From Bacillota bacterium (GTDB taxonomy: Bacteria; Bacillota; Sulfobacillia; JAJZYS01; JAILZS01): 64,000 nt of DNA. The stretch covers positions 27,260 through 91,259 of the forward strand of contig JAILZS010000003.1 in the NCBI GenBank assembly GCA_023512375.1. Direction: 5' to 3'. A program made the position numbers and the translations under genes. This document shows positions 3,882-42,472 of the stretch, in pieces. How positions within the stretch are numbered: the stretch's first letter is position 1; the number at the start of each line of letters is the position of its first letter. The notes beneath the pieces were generated by a model. That model saw only the letters and a list, made by a program, of their open reading frames with translations. It searched no databases and was not told the DNA's origin.

Positions 3882-5279
3882 TCACCGGCTCCGCCCTTCC
3901 GACAGTCCCGAGCGCAATAGCCGTCCCAGCGCCCGCACGCTTCGTTGGCGCTCGAGACGCATCACCCACGCCTCCACCTCCGCCAGGACCGACTCGGGCA
4001 GGCGGCGGCCCGCCGCGGCGCGCCACTTGGCCCGTACGTCGGCTTCCTGCCAGGGACGGTCGGGGCTCCCGCTGGGGGCCGGCACGTCGGCGGTGTATCG
4101 GCTGCCGTCGCGGGCGACGCACGTCACGCGGCCAGCGAACCGCGCCGGGTACCCCATCCCCTCCTCCGGCCGGTAGGTCACGCGGGCGGCGAAGGCGAGG
4201 ACCTCGGGCCGGATCCCCTGCGGGCGGAAGGTGTCGACGTCCACCGCACCGTCCAGCCACATCGAAGCCACGGCGTACGGCAGGCTGAACCTCGCATCCA
4301 CCGCCGAGGCCGGCCGCAGCTTCCTTTCCCACGGCTCGCAGATGACCGGCACGACCTCGGCGGGCACGGTGCACTCCACGCGCTCGACGTCCGCTGCCGC
4401 GACGCCCCCGTCCCGGAGCTCGGCGCAGGCGTCCAAGAAGGCGTGGATGTAGTGGCAGCACGGGTACGCCTTGTACGAGAGCTCGCGCGCGTGCCATACG
4501 GTGCCGAGGTCGTCGAACACGCGCCGATCCGGTTCCGCCCCGGCGGCGTGCGTGCGGTACAGGCCAAAGCGTCCCTCCAGCGCTGTCGCAGGCCCACGCA
4601 CGCCTTCCCGTGCGAGGTGGGCCGCCACCAATCCCATGTGGGCGGCCCAGCCTGGGTAGACCACCTTTACGTCGGAACCGTCGCCCAGGAACTCGAATAC
4701 GCCTCCCGCCAGGCTGGCGCCGATGCCCACCGCCGCGGCGAGGCGGTCGCGATCCAGGCCGAGGAGCCATCCGGCCACCAGGGCGGCGGCGGCGGGACCG
4801 CAGGCAGCGGTGGTCTGGAACCCCTGGCGCTGAAACGCCCCCGGGGCCGCGAGCCCCAGCCGGATGAGGACCTCCCATCCCAGGACGATGGCGTCCGAAC
4901 AGGCGGAGCCCGATGCGCCGGCCAGCTCCGCGGCAGCCAGGGCGGCGGGCACCACGACCGAGCTCGCATGTACCACCGAGCCGATGTGTGTGTCGTCGTA
5001 TTCCAAGGCGTGGATGAGGGCGCCGTTGGCGAGAGCGGCGGACGGGGCCGGCAGGCGCTCGGCCGCCCCCAGGGCGGTGGCCTCCGACCGCGTCCCCAAG
5101 GCGCGCACCGCCGCCAATACGCTCTGCCCTTCCGGCAGGGAGGAGGCCGCGATCCCCACGCCCAGGGCGTCGAGCAGGTGCAGCGCCGCGATGCGCCGGA
5201 CGTCCGGCGGGATGGCACCGCCCGCCCAGGCCATCGCCACGTCCACCAGTCCGTCCACAATGGTCGCCCTCGCCGCCAT
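3882..5279 (-). CDS. MmgE/PrpD family protein, paralog 2
   Basis: 465-aa ORF with a PrpD-like N-terminus (MAARATIVDGLVDVAMAWAG...) and full length typical of the family. Confidence 0.8.
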   Translation of the reverse strand: MAARATIVDGLVDVAMAWAGGAIPPDVRRIAALHLLDALGVGIAASSLPEGQSVLAAVRALGTRSEATALGAAERLPAPSAALANGALIHALEYDDTHIGSVVHASSVVVPAALAAAELAGASGSACSDAIVLGWEVLIRLGLAAPGAFQRQGFQTTAACGPAAAALVAGWLLGLDRDRLAAAVGIGASLAGGVFEFLGDGSDVKVVYPGWAAHMGLVAAHLAREGVRGPATALEGRFGLYRTHAAGAEPDRRVFDDLGTVWHARELSYKAYPCCHYIHAFLDACAELRDGGVAAADVERVECTVPAEVVPVICEPWERKLRPASAVDARFSLPYAVASMWLDGAVDVDTFRPQGIRPEVLAFAARVTYRPEEGMGYPARFAGRVTCVARDGSRYTADVPAPSGSPDRPWQEADVRAKWRAAAGRRLPESVLAEVEAWVMRLERQRSVRALGRLLRSGLSEGRSR

Positions 5280-23781: not shown

Positions 23782-24603
23782 TCAAGCGCCGATCCCAAGC
23801 GGCTCCAGCGTCCGCACCCGCCCCTCGACGCGCGCCACCCGGTCGTATCCGGCCTCCTCCAGGAGGGCGACCGCCCGGTCGAAGGCGTAGCCGGCGTACT
23901 GCGGCTCGTGCGCGTCCGAGGCGACGGTGGCCGGCACTCCGCGCCGCCGCGCCAGGGCGAGGATCTCGGGCGCCGGGTAGAGGATGCCGACCGGACGGCG
24001 AAGGCCGTTCGTGTTCACCTCGATCGCCATGTCCGCCGCCGCCAGGGCGTCCACGAGGGGAGCGAAGAGGGCCCTCAGGTCCTTGCCGTAGAAGTGGCCC
24101 CACAGCTTGGGCAGGTCGGGATGGGTGAAGACGTCGAACAGGCCGCTTCGACAGGCGGCGACGGCCGTCTCGACGTACCGCTCCCACACCGCGTCCACGT
24201 CCCGCCCCTGCCAGTCGTCGGGCGAGTTGTCGATGGCGAAGTCCCCCAGCCAATGCACGCTGCCGAGCACGAAGTCCCACGGGTAGAGGGACAGAAGGCG
24301 CGCGATCCCCTCCTCCTTGCCCGGCACGTAGTCCACCTCCAGGCCCGCGACGATGGGGTAGCCGGCCGAGCGCGCCCTGTCCAGGAACTCCAGGTAAGGC
24401 CCCAGGTCGTAGCGGCAACGCGCCTCCGACCACGCCCCGGGGAGCAGGCCGCGCGCCTCGTGGAAACGGTAGGCGTGCTCCACCACCCCCAGGGTGTCCA
24501 CGCCCGCCCGCCGCGCCTGGGCGACGTAGGCGTCCAGCCATTCGAGGGGGTAGTTGTCGGGCCCGTACGGTCCCTTCTCGAGGTGGACGTGGTGGTCAAC
24601 CAC
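23782..24603 (-). CDS. PHP-family histidinol-phosphatase-like phosphoesterase (possible phosphoserine phosphatase role in this operon)
   Basis: MVDHHVHLE PHP motif I and later His/Asp metal ligands (EHAY, SDAHEP). Start overlaps the serA stop by 8 nt. Confidence 0.7.
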   Translation of the reverse strand: MVDHHVHLEKGPYGPDNYPLEWLDAYVAQARRAGVDTLGVVEHAYRFHEARGLLPGAWSEARCRYDLGPYLEFLDRARSAGYPIVAGLEVDYVPGKEEGIARLLSLYPWDFVLGSVHWLGDFAIDNSPDDWQGRDVDAVWERYVETAVAACRSGLFDVFTHPDLPKLWGHFYGKDLRALFAPLVDALAAADMAIEVNTNGLRRPVGILYPAPEILALARRRGVPATVASDAHEPQYAGYAFDRAVALLEEAGYDRVARVEGRVRTLEPLGIGA

Positions 24604-26191
24604 GGGCCGGCGCCTCCGCCGTCCCGGCGGCCCCGAGCTCCACCGCCACCGCCTGGGACACCTCCGGCAGGGCCCCCAGGCGGTCGAGCACCCCGTCGGG
24701 CACCGGCCCGTCCAACACCAGCGCCATCACCGCCTCGCCTCCCGGCCGGTCCCGCCCCAGCTCGAGGGCGGCGATGTTCACGCCCGCGTCGCCCAGAAGC
24801 GTGCCCACGTGACCCACCACGCCCGGCCGGTCGCGGTGGCGAGTGATCACCAGGGCAGGGCCCAGCGGAAGGTCGAAGCGCGCCCCCAGCACGGCGCGCA
24901 ACCGGGGCGGCCCGCCCTCCCCGGCCGCCACCTCCACCGCCGGCGTCCCCTCGAACTGCACCGCCAGGAGGCGTCCCCCGCCGCCATCGTCCTCCTGGCC
25001 GCTCACCAGCGCGAGGCCGCGGTCGTGGGCCCGGGCCAGGGCGTTCACCGGATTCACCCCGTCCTCCCCGGACACGCGCAGAAGGCCCGCCATGGCGGCG
25101 CGGGCCGCAAGCGGCAGGGCCTCGGAAGGAAACGCCCCCCGAGCCAGCACACGGAGGGTGGAGGCGGGAGGCCCCAGGGCGGCCAGGATCCGGCCCGCCG
25201 CCTCCCCCGCCGCCAGCACCTCGGCGGCGCGCACCACCTCGGGCGGGGGGTAGGGCAGGTTGACCGGATCCTCCGGCGCCTCGCCCCGAAGCACGCGCAA
25301 CACGTCCTCGGCCACGCGCACGCCGATGCGCTCCTGCGCCTCCAGGGTGGAGCCCCCGAGGTGGCAGGTGACAAGCGTGTCCTCGCGACCGAGCAGGGCG
25401 AGATCGCGCGGCGGCGGCTCCGAACTGAAGACGTCGAAGGCCGCACCGGCCAGATGGCCCGCGGCCAGAAGCTCGGCCACCGCCTCCTCGTCCACCAAGC
25501 CGCCGCGGGCCACGTTGAGCACGTACGCGCCCCTCGGCAGGCGGGAGAGCTCCGCCCTGCCCAAGCGCGGCCCCGTCTTGGGGGTATGGATGGTGAGCAC
25601 GTCGCTCCGCACGAGGAGGTCGGCGAGGGTATTGGCCCGCTCGGCGCCGTAGGCGCGGAACACCTCGTCGCTCACGTAGGGGTCGTACGCCGTCACCGCC
25701 ATGCCGAAGGCGCGCCCGAACCGCGCCACCTCCCGCCCCACGCGGCCGATGCCGATGATGCCCAGGCGGCGCCCCCGCATCTCGGCGCCGAAGAAGGCGG
25801 CGCGGTCCCACCCCCCCTCCCGCACATGCCTGTCGGCACGGCGCATGTGCCGGGCCAGGGCGAGGAGCATCCCCCACGTGTGCTCGGCCGCCGCCACCGC
25901 GTTGGCGCCGGGGGTGTTGAGCACGAGGACGCCTCGCCGCGTCGCCGCCTCCACGTCGATGTTGTCCACGCCGGTGCCCGCCCGCGCCGCCACCTTCAGG
26001 CGCGGCGCCCCCTCCAGGTCGGCCGCGGTGACGCGGTGGGCGCTGCGTACGATGACGGCATCGAATTCGCCCAGCCGCCGCCGGTACTCCGCCGGATCCA
26101 TGAGGTCATGCGCCTCCACCTCGGCCTCACGCCGTAGGCGCCGAAGCGCCTCCTCCCCCAGCACCTCGGTCACCAGCACCCGCGGTCTCAC
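24596..26191 (-). CDS. serA: D-3-phosphoglycerate dehydrogenase with C-terminal ACT domain
   Basis: 2-hydroxyacid dehydrogenase NAD motif (GIIGIGRVGREVA) and catalytic R/E/H, with a C-terminal ACT-like segment. GTG 26191 overlaps the upstream gene stop (GTGA). Confidence 0.8.
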   Translation of the reverse strand: MRPRVLVTEVLGEEALRRLRREAEVEAHDLMDPAEYRRRLGEFDAVIVRSAHRVTAADLEGAPRLKVAARAGTGVDNIDVEAATRRGVLVLNTPGANAVAAAEHTWGMLLALARHMRRADRHVREGGWDRAAFFGAEMRGRRLGIIGIGRVGREVARFGRAFGMAVTAYDPYVSDEVFRAYGAERANTLADLLVRSDVLTIHTPKTGPRLGRAELSRLPRGAYVLNVARGGLVDEEAVAELLAAGHLAGAAFDVFSSEPPPRDLALLGREDTLVTCHLGGSTLEAQERIGVRVAEDVLRVLRGEAPEDPVNLPYPPPEVVRAAEVLAAGEAAGRILAALGPPASTLRVLARGAFPSEALPLAARAAMAGLLRVSGEDGVNPVNALARAHDRGLALVSGQEDDGGGGRLLAVQFEGTPAVEVAAGEGGPPRLRAVLGARFDLPLGPALVITRHRDRPGVVGHVGTLLGDAGVNIAALELGRDRPGGEAVMALVLDGPVPDGVLDRLGALPEVSQAVAVELGAAGTAEAPARG

Positions 26192-27381
26192 GTCCGCACG
26201 CCCTCCTTCCGATATCCCTCGACCTCCCAACCGTCCGCTCCGCCGCCGCGCCAGGCCCGCACCGCCGCCGCCGTTCCGGTGCCGTCGGCCGGCTCCCCCC
26301 GCACCTCGGCCAGGGCCGCCTCGAGGGCGGCGACCGCGGCCACCGCATCCAGGGGGCCCACCGCCCCCACGTGCCCGACGCGCACCGCCACCTCCCTCAG
26401 GGGCCCCATGCCGCCGGCGAACGCAGCCCCCAGGCGTCCTGCCGCGGCCCTCAGAGCTGCGGGTGCCACGCCCTCGGGCAAGGTGAGGGCCGTCACCGTG
26501 GGCGAAGCCACCTCCTCCCGCGCCAGGGGCCGAAGGCCGATCGCTCGCGCCCCCTCCCGCACCATGCGGGCCACCAGGCGATGGCGGCGCTCGCGCCCCT
26601 CCGCCCCCTCCCCCTCAAGGCGGGCCAGGGAGCGCTCCAGCGCATACCACAGGCCCACCGGGGCGGTGTAGGGAAGGTCTCCCTTCAGGTACGGACGCAG
26701 GTCGAAGTAGGCGCGGCGGCGCCCGGACCCCTCGACCGCCCGGCGCGCCCGTTCGCCCACGGCCACCAGCGCCAGGCCGGGCGGCAGGGCGAAGGCCTTC
26801 TGCGACCCGGCCACGACCAGGTCCACGCCCCATGCGTCCATGGGCAGGGCCACGGCGGGGAAGCCGCTCACCGCGTCCACCGCCACGAGGGTGCCGGGGG
26901 CGTGGGCGCGCACCGCCGCCGCCAACGCCTCGACGTCCTGCAGCACGCCGGTCGACGTCTCGTTCTGCGTGAGCAGCACGCCGGCGTAGGGTTGGTCGAC
27001 CAGCCGCTCGGCTACTGCATCCGGCGACGCCGCCTCCCCCCACGCCACCTCCAGGCGGTCGACGACCAGGCCGAGACCTGCGGCCATGTCCGCCCAGCGG
27101 GCGCCGAAGGCCCCGGCCACGACCGCGAGCACGCGCTCGCCCGGGCAGAACAGGTTGACCAGCGCCGCCTCCAGGCCTCCCGTTCCGGAGGCGGGGAGGA
27201 CGGCCACGTCCCCGGCGGTGCCGAACAGGCGAGCCAGCCGGGGCAGGAGCTCGGCCATCAGAGCGCCGAAGGCGCTCCCCCGATGGTCGACCATGGGCAG
27301 GGCCTGGGCCAGGGCGACGTCGGCAGGTACGGGCGTCGGCCCGGGCAGAAACAGGTGGGCCGGTGCGGCCTCTGGGCGCAT
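26188..27381 (-). CDS. class V aminotransferase (serine-pyruvate / phosphoserine aminotransferase, AGXT-like)
   Basis: PLP fold with the SQKA(F) Lys motif (GSQKAFALPPG). ATG 27381 preceded by a GGGGGGAAGAG RBS. Immediately downstream of the T-box leader. Confidence 0.8.
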   Translation of the reverse strand: MRPEAAPAHLFLPGPTPVPADVALAQALPMVDHRGSAFGALMAELLPRLARLFGTAGDVAVLPASGTGGLEAALVNLFCPGERVLAVVAGAFGARWADMAAGLGLVVDRLEVAWGEAASPDAVAERLVDQPYAGVLLTQNETSTGVLQDVEALAAAVRAHAPGTLVAVDAVSGFPAVALPMDAWGVDLVVAGSQKAFALPPGLALVAVGERARRAVEGSGRRRAYFDLRPYLKGDLPYTAPVGLWYALERSLARLEGEGAEGRERRHRLVARMVREGARAIGLRPLAREEVASPTVTALTLPEGVAPAALRAAAGRLGAAFAGGMGPLREVAVRVGHVGAVGPLDAVAAVAALEAALAEVRGEPADGTGTAAAVRAWRGGGADGWEVEGYRKEGVRT

Positions 27382-27404
27382 CGCGCTCTTCCCCCCATCG
27401 TCGT

Positions 27405-27700
27405 CGAATGAACAGACGACCGCCGTCCCTCAAGGGACGGCGGTTTGCCGCGGTGCCACCCTCGTTGGCGCCATGCGCCCACTCGGACGCCGTTCACGGG
27501 GCGTCGGCCGGCCGCGTTGTCCGCGGCACCTCCCCGGTGGACCCCGGACGCTCCGGCCGGCCGACTCGCACCCGCTCGGCTCGCTGCACGGCCTCGGCGC
27601 CGGTGCCGGTTCCTCGGCACGATTGGCGACGTTGGTTGTCGCCCATCGTGCACGATGGGGGACCGGGCCGTCAATCCCCCCCGCCCTCTTGCGGGCGTCG
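27405..27700 (-). promoter_or_regulatory. T-box riboswitch leader upstream of the aminotransferase-serA-PHP operon
   Basis: Minus-strand sequence AGGGTGGCACCGCGG (plus coordinates 27448-27462) matches the conserved T-box motif AGGGUGGNACCGCG. It sits about 70 nt upstream of the ATG and immediately 5' of a terminator whose 5' arm can alternatively pair with the motif to form the canonical antiterminator. The roughly 290-nt untranslated leader is consistent with T-box length. Confidence 0.6.
27420..27443 (-). terminator. T-box leader intrinsic terminator hairpin (CCGCCGTCCC-TTGA-GGGACGGCGG)
   Basis: Perfect 10-bp GC-rich stem followed on the minus strand by the U-containing tract GTCGTCTGTTCATTC. 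Alternative pairing of its 5' arm with the T-box sequence is shown in findings. Confidence 0.55.
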
Positions 27701-28348
27701 GGGCCGCCCGGAGGGATGCTTCGGTGGGCACGGGCCCCGCCCGCCGCCCCCTTGCGGCCCCAGCGCGCGGCGGTGCGCGTCCACCTCCCGCCACACGAGC
27801 TCCGCCACCCACGCGTCGTCCAGGTAGCCGACCGGGAAGCGGTCGTCCGGGATGGCGTCCACGCTCAGGACGAAGTACAGGAGGGCCGCCGCCACCCGCC
27901 GCCGGAGGGCTTGGGGCAGGTCGTCGCCCCCCTGGGCGTACAGCTCGAAGAGGGCGTCCAGCCGGGCCAGGGCGGGTCCGGCCATACCGCTCTGAGCCAG
28001 AAGAGCCCGCTTGGGCCCATAGCCCGCCCGCACCAGCCCCTCCACCTCCGCCCCTCCCGCCAGGGCGGCCAGTTGCTCCAGGGTCGCCCGTACGTGGCCG
28101 GGGCCGATCCCCTCGGGAACGCCCCACGCCGGCTCCTCGTCTGCCGCCCCGGCGCGGGCGAGCGCCACCAGGCGGTCGGGGTCCAACCCCAGGTGGGGGG
28201 CGAGGAGGCGCAGAAGTCGCGGCGTGGGGGCGGCGCGCCCCGCCATGAGACGCGACAGGGTGGTATGGTGCACCCCCGCCCTGGCGCCCAGGGCGCGCAG
28301 GCTCCAGCCCCCCGCGGCGATGCGCGCCGCCAGCTCCCGCCGCACGAG
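27671..28348 (-). CDS. HTH (XRE-like) transcriptional regulator fused to a DUF1232 (YkvA-like) domain
   Basis: HTH segment WSLRALGARAGVHHTTLSRLMAG. C-terminal YFVLSVDAIPDDRFPVGYLDDAWV matches the DUF1232 signature. Start is uncertain; the N-terminal 45 aa of the ORF are low complexity. Confidence 0.5.
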   Translation of the reverse strand, partial: LVRRELAARIAAGGWSLRALGARAGVHHTTLSRLMAGRAAPTPRLLRLLAPHLGLDPDRLVALARAGAADEEPAWGVPEGIGPGHVRATLEQLAALAGGAEVEGLVRAGYGPKRALLAQSGMAGPALARLDALFELYAQGGDDLPQALRRRVAAALLYFVLSVDAIPDDRFPVGYLDDAWVAELVWREVDAHRRALGPQGGGGRGPCPPKHPSGRPRRPQEGGGD

Positions 28349-28542
28349 GGTCGCACCCGCGTCCGCCTCCCCCGACGTCTCCCCCACCTCCCGACGGCTC
28401 CAGGGCCGCCCGGACAGTGTACGGCAGCGGCGGGGCGACGGTGTGCGCCCGTCCCCGCGTAGGCCGGACGGGCCGGTGCGCACCGCGGTGAGCCCTGCAC
28501 CAGCCCGCCGGCGCCGTCATAGCAGAGGACGGTGGTCCACGG

Positions 28543-30045: not shown

Positions 30046-30825
30046 ATGCAGGGGGAGACGAACGACCGCCTGGCGGCGCTGTTCCGGACGGTGCCGGCCG
30101 GGCGAGGGTCGAACGCCATCGCCCGCCGCATCGAGCGCGCCATCCTGAACGGCGATCTCGCCGTGGGCGAGCGCCTGCCCAACGAGCGCGACCTGGGGCG
30201 CCTGTTCGGGGTCAGCCGCGCCACCCTGCGCGAGGCCCTGCGCATCCTCGAGGCCGACGGCCTCCTCGAGGTTCGCCGCGGCGTCACGGGCGGGGCGTTC
30301 GTATCCGTGCCGCGTACGGAGAGGGCGGCGAGCGCGCTCGCCGCCCTCATCCGCTTCCGCCAGGCCACCCCCGCCCATTTCTCCGAGTTCCGCCTCGCCT
30401 TCGAGGCGGAGAACGCCCGCCTGGCCGCGGCGAGAGCCACCCCGGAGCAGGTGGCCGCGATCGTGGAGGCGGCCGCCGCCGCAGCGGCCTGCGCCCATCC
30501 CGACGCGGCGTGGGAGGAGTTCATGGACCGGGACATCGACTTTCACGAGCGCGTGGCCGAGGCGACCGCCAACCCGATCCGGGTGGCGGTCATGCTGGGC
30601 GTACACGGCGCCTTCCGCCAGTCGTCGCGCGCCGTCGGCCGCCTCGACACGCCCGCATGGCGGCGCGAGCAGGCGGCCCAGCTGGAGGAGGTGGCGCGCG
30701 CCATCCGCCTGCGCCGGCCGCGCGCCGCCCAGCGCCACATGCAGCGCCACATCCTGAGCAACACGGCGGTGGCCGAGGCCATCTGGGCCCGGCCCTCGCC
30801 GGACGGCGAGGGCGGACAGGCATGA
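30046..30825 (+). CDS. GntR family (FadR/FCD subfamily) transcriptional regulator
   Basis: wHTH segment RLPNERDLGRLFGVSRATLREALRILEADGLLEVRRGVTGGAFV plus an all-helical FCD-like C-terminal domain. ATG 30046 (MQGE...). Confidence 0.8.
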   Translation: MQGETNDRLAALFRTVPAGRGSNAIARRIERAILNGDLAVGERLPNERDLGRLFGVSRATLREALRILEADGLLEVRRGVTGGAFVSVPRTERAASALAALIRFRQATPAHFSEFRLAFEAENARLAAARATPEQVAAIVEAAAAAAACAHPDAAWEEFMDRDIDFHERVAEATANPIRVAVMLGVHGAFRQSSRAVGRLDTPAWRREQAAQLEEVARAIRLRRPRAAQRHMQRHILSNTAVAEAIWARPSPDGEGGQA

Positions 30826-41305: not shown

Positions 41306-42472
41306 ATGGCGAGCCGCGTCGTGGTGGTGGGGGGCGGTGTGATCGGCGCCGCCTGCACCTACTTCCTCACCGCCGCGGGAGCCGAGGTGACGCTCGTGGA
41401 GGCGCAGGTGGTGGGTGGGGGCACCTCCTCCCGCTGCGACGGCAACGTTCTGGCCATCGACAAGAGCCCGGGCTTCGACAGCCAGCTGGGCCTGCGAAGT
41501 CAAAAGCTCCTGGCCGAGCTCGCCCATGTCCTGGGCGACTTCGAGTACAGGAGCCCGGGAAGCTACCTCGTGTGCGACAACGACGACGAGGTGGAGCCCG
41601 CGCATACGTGGACCGAGGCGCTTCGGGAGTCGGGCCTGCCGGTCGAGTTCCTGGAGCGCGAGGAGGTGCACCGGCGCCTCCCCGACCTGGCGGCGGACGT
41701 GCCCGCCGGCCTGTACTGCGCCTCCGACGCCACCCTCAACCCCCTCCTCTACGTCCAGGGCCTGGTGGCCTGGGCACGGGAGCGGGGGGCTTCGGTGCGC
41801 GATCGAAGCCCGGTCGCCGCTCTGGACGCCAGTGACGGGAGGGTGCGGGGGGTGGTCCTGGCCTCGGGCGAACACCTCGCCGCCGACGCCACGGTGGTGG
41901 CCGCCGGCATCGCCACGCCCGCCCTGGTCGCCCCGCTGGGGATCGAGCTCCCCATCCGCCCCCGCAAGGGGCACCTGATCGTGTCGGCGCGGGGGCGGCG
42001 CTTCGGCGACGCCAAGGTGATGGAGTTCGGCTACCTCATGAGCAAGTTCGGACTCGAGCGCCGCGTCCCGCCCGACGTCGAGCGCTACGGCGTAGCGCTG
42101 GTGTACGAGCCGACGCGGGCGGGCAACTTCCTCCTGGGTTCGAGCCGCGAGTTCGTGGGCGAGGACACGGAGAGCGACCCGGAGGTGGTGCGCACCATCG
42201 CCCGCCGCGCCCTGCGCTTCTACCCGGGCATGCGCGCCGCCACTGTCGTGCGCACCTACGCCGGGCTCAGGCCGTGGACGCCCGACCACCTTCCGGTGGT
42301 GTCGGCGGCGGAGGGCGTGCCCGGCCTGTTCGTGGCAGCGGGACACGAGGGGGACGGCATCAGCCTGGCAGCGGTGACGGGGGAGATCGTGCGCGACCTC
42401 GTCCTGGGGCGCGAGACCGCCCTCGACGTCGCCCCGTTGCGCCTGGGCCGGTTCGGCCTCGGCGCCGCCTGA
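41306..42472 (+). CDS. FAD-dependent oxidoreductase (DAO family; D-hydroxyproline dehydrogenase / opine oxidase beta-subunit-like)
   Basis: VVVVGGGVIGAACTYFL dinucleotide-binding motif and DAO-fold C-terminus (GLRPWTPDHLPVV...GHEGDGI). The real gene is the C-terminal 388 aa of a 583-aa six-frame ORF. Confidence 0.8.
   Translation: MASRVVVVGGGVIGAACTYFLTAAGAEVTLVEAQVVGGGTSSRCDGNVLAIDKSPGFDSQLGLRSQKLLAELAHVLGDFEYRSPGSYLVCDNDDEVEPAHTWTEALRESGLPVEFLEREEVHRRLPDLAADVPAGLYCASDATLNPLLYVQGLVAWARERGASVRDRSPVAALDASDGRVRGVVLASGEHLAADATVVAAGIATPALVAPLGIELPIRPRKGHLIVSARGRRFGDAKVMEFGYLMSKFGLERRVPPDVERYGVALVYEPTRAGNFLLGSSREFVGEDTESDPEVVRTIARRALRFYPGMRAATVVRTYAGLRPWTPDHLPVVSAAEGVPGLFVAAGHEGDGISLAAVTGEIVRDLVLGRETALDVAPLRLGRFGLGAA

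Follow-up and report, generated by a model that had tools for sequence, protein, structure and literature searches.

A sequence-divergent, G+C-rich T-box leader, very probably specific for serine, ahead of an aminotransferase-serA-PHP phosphatase operon in Bacillota

Background

We studied a 64,000-nucleotide (nt) stretch of a Bacillota genome (assembly GCA_023512375.1, contig JAILZS010000003.1, positions 27,260 to 91,259; hereafter the window, with coordinates counted from its first letter), in which three minus-strand genes for an aminotransferase, SerA and a PHP-family phosphatase follow a structured 5' leader. We conclude that this leader is very probably a serine-specific T-box riboswitch. 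It is a genuine, sequence-divergent and GC-rich T-box; the riboswitch class is known, and this type of regulon has already been described in other Firmicutes.

T-box control of serA and serC has been published, including by experiment in Paenibacillus. In P. polymyxa WLY78, antitermination of serA by a Ser(AGC) T-box was demonstrated by mutagenesis and reporter fusions (PMC8002221). The predictions of Gutierrez-Preciado et al. 2009, as far as they are cited in PMC8002221, place Ser(AGC) T-boxes on serA in B. clausii and B. halodurans, and Ser(UCC) T-boxes on serA in Clostridium acetobutylicum and C. tetani and on serC in C. thermocellum and Desulfitobacterium hafniense. There is no mention of serA in Wels 2008. 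An earlier reading of the window, made from the letters alone (the sequence-only reading), had called T-boxes on serine biosynthetic operons uncommon; the serA and serC cases in PMC8002221 make this an overstatement, although it is relatively true, as serS is the usual target.

The locus and the leader

The genes downstream of the leader are those that the sequence-only reading had named:

26188..27381, minus strand: class V (AGXT/SGAT-like) aminotransferase, 397 amino acids (Pfam Aminotran_5)
24596..26191, minus strand: serA, D-3-phosphoglycerate dehydrogenase with an ACT domain (TIGR01327, 462.8 bits; cut-off 454)
23782..24603, minus strand: PHP-family HisJ-like phosphatase, 273 amino acids (PRK07328, 209.9 bits; cut-off 202)

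The GTG start of serA overlaps the stop of the aminotransferase gene (GTGA), and the PHP gene starts within serA, with an overlap of 8 nt; this arrangement suggests a single operon with translational coupling.

We followed close homologues of the aminotransferase to the contigs that encode them, which gave seven further leaders of the window's lineage (L081, L082 (= L083), L089, L092, L105, L106 and L107) and, together with that of the window, a set of eight (7 distinct loci). The aminotransferase of L081 is 92% identical to that of the window, and those of the other six are 61-66% identical in full-length alignment. The named aminotransferase homologues come from metagenome-assembled genomes (MAGs) of Bacillota, Thermaerobacter and Sulfobacillus. 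A separate profile search of genome contigs with the aminotransferase gave, among the matches listed, best relatives that were 35-49% identical, none of them from the window's lineage.

The complete T-box leader occupies 27617..27419 on the minus strand. Its elements, with those of the putative promoter and of the translation start, are listed below in the order of transcription; CM stands for covariance model, and "cells" are the cells of the alignment of the eight leaders.

27669..27674, minus strand: putative -35 box TTGACG, invariant in 8 of 8 related leaders despite differing spacers
27645..27650, minus strand: putative -10 box CACGAT (lineage consensus cAaGAT), 18 nt past the -35 box; A at position 2, AT at positions 5-6 and a spacing of 17-18 nt are kept in the eight leaders
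27529..27617, minus strand: Stem I, placed by CM alignment, a column map and pair counts on the eight leaders
27539..27541, minus strand: specifier codon UCC (Ser), with the purine A at 27538; at the codon position of the CM, within GUCCACCGG, which is invariant in the eight leaders
27511..27527, minus strand: Stem II, a 6-base-pair (bp) hairpin GCCGCG-GACAA-CGCGGC; aligned to the CM with deletions, 97.9% of cells paired
27487..27510, minus strand: Stem IIA/B pseudoknot with F-box-like CCGUGA; IIA CGG/CCG, IIB ACGCC/GGCGU, the latter 100% paired
27467..27479, minus strand: Stem III, GGCGC-AUG-GCGCC; 100% of cells paired in the eight leaders, loop of 3 to 10 nt
27449..27462, minus strand: T-box sequence AGGGUGGCACCGCG, 14 nt; motif match and CM
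27433..27462, minus strand: antiterminator with A1 AGGG/CCCU, 7-nt bulge UGGCACC and A2 GCGGC/GCCGU; -10.5 kcal/mol, all pairs invariant in the eight leaders
27419..27444, minus strand: terminator hairpin ACCGCCGUCCC-UUGA-GGGACGGCGGU; -23.1 kcal/mol, its 5' arm being the 3' strand of the antiterminator
27405..27418, minus strand: weak U-rich tail CGUCUGUUCAUUCG, with 4 U in the first 9 nt
27388..27396, minus strand: Shine-Dalgarno (SD) sequence GGGGGGAAG, outside the terminator hairpin

The T-box motif and the perfect hairpin from which the sequence-only reading had started are both found where it had placed them. The 15-mer AGGGTGGCACCGCGG (27462..27448, minus strand) has its sole exact copy within the 64-kb window here, with CAAA-CCGCCGT-CCCT next to it, and the hairpin (A)CCGCCGTCCC-TTGA-GGGACGGCGG(T) (27444..27419, minus strand) has 11 bp if the closing A-U pair is counted. 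Allowing up to 2 mismatches, the 15-mer gave 2 matches versus 1.38 expected in the window, which is not significant for the 15-mer alone. The 64 kb contain three perfect short-loop hairpins with 10 bp or more, this one included, and dinucleotide shuffles gave a similar count. As the 15-mer is no rarer than chance, the motif alone is no proof; the case is made by the whole architecture and by the comparison with related leaders.

A Stem I and a specifier codon for serine, both of which the sequence-only reading had expected further upstream, are present. Stem I is built of a CC/GG base with the K-turn GAGGAA/GGA, P1 (CCGG/CCGG), P2, P3 and P4 (GCCGA/UCGGC). The K-turn (GA motif) reads CC-GAGGAA-CCGG ... 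CCGG-GGA-GG (27617..27606 and 27537..27529), and its flanking pairs are invariant in the eight leaders. The AG bulge UGCAGCGA (consensus AGAGA) and the distal loop GCGGGUGCGAG (GGUG..A) align to the conserved residues of the model and are kept in the eight leaders. The specifier loop has CA on its 5' side and GGUCCA on its 3' side. In the antiterminator region, the proposed competition between two structures held, but the proposed pairing, with a 4-nt UGGC bulge and ACCGCGG/CCGCCGU as the A2 helix, did not; the canonical form has the 7-nt bulge and the A2 helix listed above.

Judging from its conservation, TTGACG-N18-CACGAT would be the promoter of the leader. The pattern TTGACG-N17/18-cAaGAT and the full T-box layout, including the hairpin and the specifier, are common to all eight leaders. 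The TTGACG -35 box was too weak to be reported by a consensus promoter scanner.

The following features surround the leader. The transcript is predicted to begin just ahead of a small 5' hairpin, GGCGAC-AACCAAC-GUCGCC (27644..27618, minus strand), which may be a 5'-end stabiliser; the motifs CGACAACC and AAUCG(U/C)(A)G in the same interval are common to most relatives (L089, L105 and L106), with different spacing. Directly upstream is a gene with HTH_3 and DUF1232 domains (27671-28483, minus strand), whose stop abuts the -35 box and which is syntenic in L081, L082/L083 and L089; no terminator is evident between this gene and the leader. The longest perfect hairpin in the window is a 12-bp palindromic one, GAGGGCGGCGAG-CGCG-CTCGCCGCCCTC, at 30321-30348. 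A related contig carries a spore-germination gene, and the host is probably a Bacillota of high G+C content.

Covariance-model and comparative evidence

At gathering thresholds, Rfam gave no match in the whole window. In E-value mode, RF00230 scores 31.8 bits on the minus strand at 27623..27430, with its model positions 1-219 aligned; the E-value is 2.2e-5 in a 501-nt search and 0.0029 for the whole window with all 4227 Rfam families, where it is the only match with E < 0.1. The alignment passes, in this order, through the K-turn, the AG bulge AGCGA, the distal loop with GGUG..A, a short Stem II, IIA/B with CCGUGA, Stem III, the T-box and the antiterminator. The bit score is low because of departures from the model (a 5' side of the specifier loop that consists of CA only, the minimal Stem II and the lack of a clean U-tract) and because of base composition. 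The gap to the gathering score of RF00230, 93 bits, is bridged by the leaders of homologous aminotransferase-serA operons, of which those of L036 and L001 score above it:

L036, Sporolactobacillus: 103.3 bits
L001, Moorellaceae: 93.5 bits
L012, Moorellales: 89.3 bits
L002, Bacillota MAG: 60 bits
L092, window lineage: 52.4 bits
L082 and L089, window lineage: 35.8 bits, partial matches
Window and L081, window lineage: 31.8 bits

The sequence-only reading had held that a score below threshold would speak against a T-box. The score is indeed below it, but this is outweighed by the E-value, the full-length alignment and the scores of the two homologous leaders above the cut-off.

When the canonical T-box structure (antiterminator form plus IIB pseudoknot) was written onto the alignment of the eight leaders (A2), 94.7% of the cells were standard pairs, versus 38-53% with the 3' partners slid by 1-3 columns. 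Seven pairs were changed on both sides, a number reached in only 6 of 500 shuffles, and the observed covariation score was reached by no shuffle. The compensatory changes are found in P2 (4 of 5 pairs), P3 (1), P4 (1) and IIB, in the last of which A-U in the window and L081 is G-C in the other six leaders. In the terminator form, 93.8% of the cells on the eight leaders are paired, with one further compensatory pair. P1, Stem II and A1/A2 do not vary and are thus uninformative on covariation. The loop motifs are invariant across the eight leaders, including GUCCACCGG with the specifier UCC and the next A.

The element is also tied to gene content. A T-box is found only with the serA-linked copy of the aminotransferase gene, and serA lies directly downstream wherever the contig reaches (that of L089 ends first); the PHP gene follows serA wherever a contig of the lineage is long enough. 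The paralogous aminotransferase copies without serA (L084-L088 and L090/91) have no T-box motif.

Two other lines gave no additional element. RNAalifold proposed a long-range pairing of the specifier region GGUCCACC (27543..27536) with the T-box GGUGG(C)ACC (27461..27453); this pairing is invariant, shows no covariation and is absent in L002, and the complementarity is probably a by-product of UCC-A mimicking the NCCA end of tRNA. A scan of metagenomes with the pattern CCACCGGGGAGGNGCCGCGGA gave 12 matches, all 12 of them chance matches without T-box leader features, mostly in GC-rich coding-like sequence.

Several observations weigh against the reading as a serine T-box. The 31.8 bits are about one third of the curated cut-off. 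The specifier loop lacks an S-turn (AGUA/GAA), its 5' side being only 2-3 nt long with a 4-nt deletion in the CM alignment, and no more than a plain hairpin is left of Stem II. The canonical Stem I is absent from single-sequence minimum free energy (MFE) folds, both of the leader and of Stem I alone; Stem III does appear in the single-sequence MFE fold. The covariation statistics come from eight sequences, two of them nearly identical, and are thus modest and supportive. The window, the sole stretch of this genome covered, contains no tRNA-Ser gene. The tail UCGUCUGUU is U-poor, has no proper U-tract and is missed by a consensus terminator scan, and in L082 no more than 2 of the 9 nt past the hairpin are U.

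If the leader were a decayed or inactive T-box, or GC-rich intergenic DNA that resembles one by chance, with a hairpin unrelated to tRNA sensing, this would account for the low Rfam score and for a 15-mer no rarer than chance; GC-rich sequence folds in many ways, and the MFE z-score of the leader is -3.45 with a non-canonical Stem I in that fold. This explanation is extremely unlikely in view of the window-wide E-value with full-length alignment, the conserved promoter, and the restriction of the element to the serA-linked gene copy. All T-box elements are kept in the eight leaders, with invariant loops and compensatory helices, despite the divergence of the aminotransferases to 61-66%.

tRNA specificity

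The specifier UCC and the following A are invariant in the eight leaders, while the adjacent P2 varies at 4 of 5 pairs. By the canonical rule, in which the codon is the three nucleotides before the purine that abuts P1, the codon is UCC in the eight leaders and in L002, and AGC, also a serine codon, in two Sporolactobacillus leaders. The variable base of the T-box is C (UGGC) in the window and L081 and U (UGGU) in the other six leaders. UGGC would pair with a GCCA-3' end (G73), and UGGU would form a G-U wobble with G73. In both L002 and L012, a tRNA-Ser(UGA) gene with a discriminator G (G73) follows serS; to our knowledge, G73 is universal in bacterial tRNA-Ser. As the specifier codon, the variable base set against G73 and the serine-making genes, three independent lines, agree, the leader most likely reads uncharged tRNA-Ser.

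Another register of the same loop would give a codon for a non-serine tRNA, namely GUC (Val), CCA (Pro) or GGU (Gly). Consistent with this, UGGU, found in 6 of the 8 leaders, would be a Watson-Crick match for a tRNA with A73, and in two leaders from Moorellales, L001 and L012, the canonical specifier position is occupied by GGC. The canonical rule and the Sporolactobacillus codons argue for serine, as do the products of the operon, which makes serine, and the gene order aminotransferase-serA-serS behind the leaders of L001, L002 and L012; moreover, C and, by wobble, U are both able to pair with G73. A non-serine effector is thus highly unlikely.

The leaders in other families show variations of their own. 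In Moorellales (L001:133-380 and L012:4181-4423), the GGC (Gly) specifier occurs with the T-box variants UGGC and UGGU, and the genes that follow are nevertheless aminotransferase-serA-serS. L002 has two T-box sequences: the one of the full T-box (4092-4304) and, between it and the aminotransferase start at 4501, another one, TGGCACCGCG, at 4372. The region around the latter (4330-4470) has its own antiterminator and terminator with a U6 tail, preceded only by a Stem III-like hairpin and no Stem I, and may represent a T-box module in tandem, or part of one. In the window, ARAGORN reported a "tRNA-???" with a two-base anticodon at 41400-41495 (plus strand); it has no Rfam tRNA match, resembles GC-rich coding DNA and is probably a false positive, and it was rejected as the effector tRNA.

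Switch and read-out

The terminator proved stable in its context, as the sequence-only reading had supposed: with -23.1 versus -10.5 kcal/mol, it exceeds the antiterminator in stability by 12.6 kcal/mol, and the two share the strand GCCGUCCCU. In the relatives, the terminator is longer, 17-19 bp with about -40 kcal/mol. As the terminator outweighs the antiterminator, the default state would be off, and stabilisation of the antiterminator by tRNA would be needed.

We propose that the leader works as follows. Transcription would start from the conserved TTGACG-N18-CACGAT promoter. The small specifier loop of Stem I would present UCC, and then A, to tRNA-Ser with anticodon GGA, and the platform of the AG bulge and the distal loop would dock the elbow of this tRNA. 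If the tRNA is uncharged, its GCCA-3' end would pair with UGGC of the 7-nt bulge, the weak antiterminator would be stabilised, and the polymerase would read into the three genes. If it is charged, the stronger ACCGCCGUCCC/GGGACGGCGGU hairpin would form with the 3' strand of the antiterminator, and transcription would stop at the U-containing tail. The net effect would be more serine synthesis under serine starvation.

What the analysis shows directly are the elements of the leader with their conservation and covariation, the specifier and the genes; tRNA binding and the termination step are inferred, the latter because the U-tract is weak. In the tail UCGUCUGUUCAUUCG, there are 4 U in the first 9 nt past the hairpin, against 13.8% T genome-wide (by our own estimate, binomial p is about 0.03 per leader). 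Four U in these 9 nt are found in 6 of the 7 leaders scored (L106 not among them), and L107 has AUUUUUAUU a few nt past the hairpin. In positions 1-60000 of the window, 9 canonical hairpin-plus-U-tract terminators were found, versus about 12.5 expected from shuffles, so that such terminators are not enriched; the host may terminate at sub-optimal, non-canonical or factor-dependent sites.

The main rival explanation is accordingly placed at this step: a serine T-box in which the hairpin acts on translation initiation or on mRNA stability, or in which termination depends on a helper (NusG or Rho). It is favoured by the missing canonical U-tract, by L082, the tail of which is nearly without U, and by the scarcity of canonical terminators in a window of 72% G+C. 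Translational T-boxes are used by high-GC lineages. On the other side, the SD sequence (27396..27388) lies at least 22 nt downstream of the hairpin and lies outside it in 8 of 8 leaders, so that sequestration of the SD sequence by the hairpin was rejected; this argues against the translational mode of Actinobacteria. The U content of the tails is higher than the base composition predicts, and the strand shared by hairpin and antiterminator is exactly as in terminating T-boxes. We therefore regard another read-out as rather unlikely and, given a T-box, transcription attenuation as the probable one.

Comparison with known systems

The leader in the window resembles the P. polymyxa serA T-box (PMC8002221) in its position ahead of a serine-biosynthesis gene, in the competition of terminator and antiterminator, and in the order of elements (Stem I, Stems II/III, 14-nt T-box, terminator). 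The Paenibacillus element is induced by serine starvation, as is likewise proposed here. The two differ in the specifier (AGC in P. polymyxa, UCC in the window) and in the terminator, which in P. polymyxa has a run of seven U that was shown to be required, whereas the tail in the window is U-poor. Furthermore, the P. polymyxa T-box controls serA alone, serC being unlinked and unregulated, and belongs to an AT-rich Bacillales genome, whereas that of the window precedes three genes in DNA of 72% G+C. The clostridial-type serA and serC T-boxes, as far as they are reported in the citing paper, share with the window the UCC specifier, targets in the serine pathway and a host among Clostridia-type Firmicutes; those targets are the canonical serA and serC, whereas here they include an AGXT-like class V aminotransferase and a PHP phosphatase.

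The operons of Sporolactobacillus (L036 and L044), Moorellales (L001 and L012) and the MAG L002 have the same head as that of the window (an aminotransferase 40-47% identical, then serA) and a T-box at the same position. Their third gene is serS (L001, L002 and L012) or absent, whereas it is the PHP gene in the window, and their terminators have clear U-tracts, unlike the U-poor one here. The specifier is AGC in Sporolactobacillus, GGC in L001 and L012, and UCC in L002 as in the window; L002 has the extra T-box/terminator module.

The translational ileS T-boxes of Actinobacteria are said to have an ultrashort Stem I and an SD-sequestering hairpin. They reportedly share with the leader studied here a host of high G+C content, little similarity to the Firmicute consensus and the lack of a canonical U-tract terminator; they differ from it in that its Stem I is of full length with a distal platform and its SD sequence lies outside the hairpin.

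The enzymes of the operon

Neither of the two enzymes flanking serA in the pathway is of the textbook family. The best PDB matches of the aminotransferase are serine-glyoxylate and serine-pyruvate aminotransferases; SerC models gave only 20-28 bits, and the protein is thus not assigned to the SerC family. Its linkage to serA suggests that it is a phosphoserine aminotransferase. The profile search of genome contigs yielded 80 loci among the matches listed (L001-L080), and serA directly follows the AGXT-like aminotransferase gene in 48 of these 80 (in Chloroflexota, Actinomycetota, Nitrospirota, Bacteroidota and others), and T-boxes are confined to the loci from Bacillota. This distribution suggests that SerA is widely partnered by a phosphoserine aminotransferase of the AGXT-like rather than the SerC type. 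In Methanococcales (MJ0959) and Synechocystis (sll1559), AGXT-like enzymes have this role. Our literature search for AGXT-type phosphoserine aminotransferases surfaced no relevant paper.

The third gene belongs to the PHP/HisJ family and not to the HAD family of SerB. Its best solved homologue is the histidinol phosphatase of Thermus thermophilus (PDB 2yxo, E = 8.7e-39), and the metal-ligand motifs are present and look intact. A PHP gene next to serA was found only in the window's lineage (the window, L081, L082/L083, L092 and L106) and in 0 of the 80 listed loci from other phyla. It is possible, and we suggest it tentatively, that the PHP protein is the missing phosphatase of the serine pathway, either as a phosphoserine phosphatase or as a 3-phosphohydroxypyruvate phosphatase feeding a hydroxypyruvate-type (SGAT-like) aminotransferase. 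We know of no described phosphoserine phosphatase from the PHP superfamily, and none was surfaced by our full-text search or is mentioned in a paper on histidinol phosphatase (HolPase). The HAD enzyme YsaA of B. subtilis hydrolyses both phosphoserine and histidinol phosphate (PMC8002221); therefore, an overlap between these two specificities has a precedent.

Implications

The leader changes nothing in the current knowledge of how T-boxes work. Its trimmed specifier loop without an S-turn and its minimal Stem II are a small natural variant that can be compared with structural models. In GC-rich Bacillota, functional-looking T-boxes can fall far short of the curated Rfam threshold (31.8 versus 93 bits here) and be missed, and T-box regulons are consequently under-called. 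As regards metabolism, the tRNA-Ser specifier is independent, regulon-based evidence on the function of two non-canonical enzymes, the AGXT-like aminotransferase and the lineage-specific PHP phosphatase. The regulon nominates the PHP protein as a candidate for the often-missing SerB function, the one mildly novel lead here; if the 3-phosphohydroxypyruvate phosphatase option were true, the T-box regulon would have revealed a re-ordered serine pathway.

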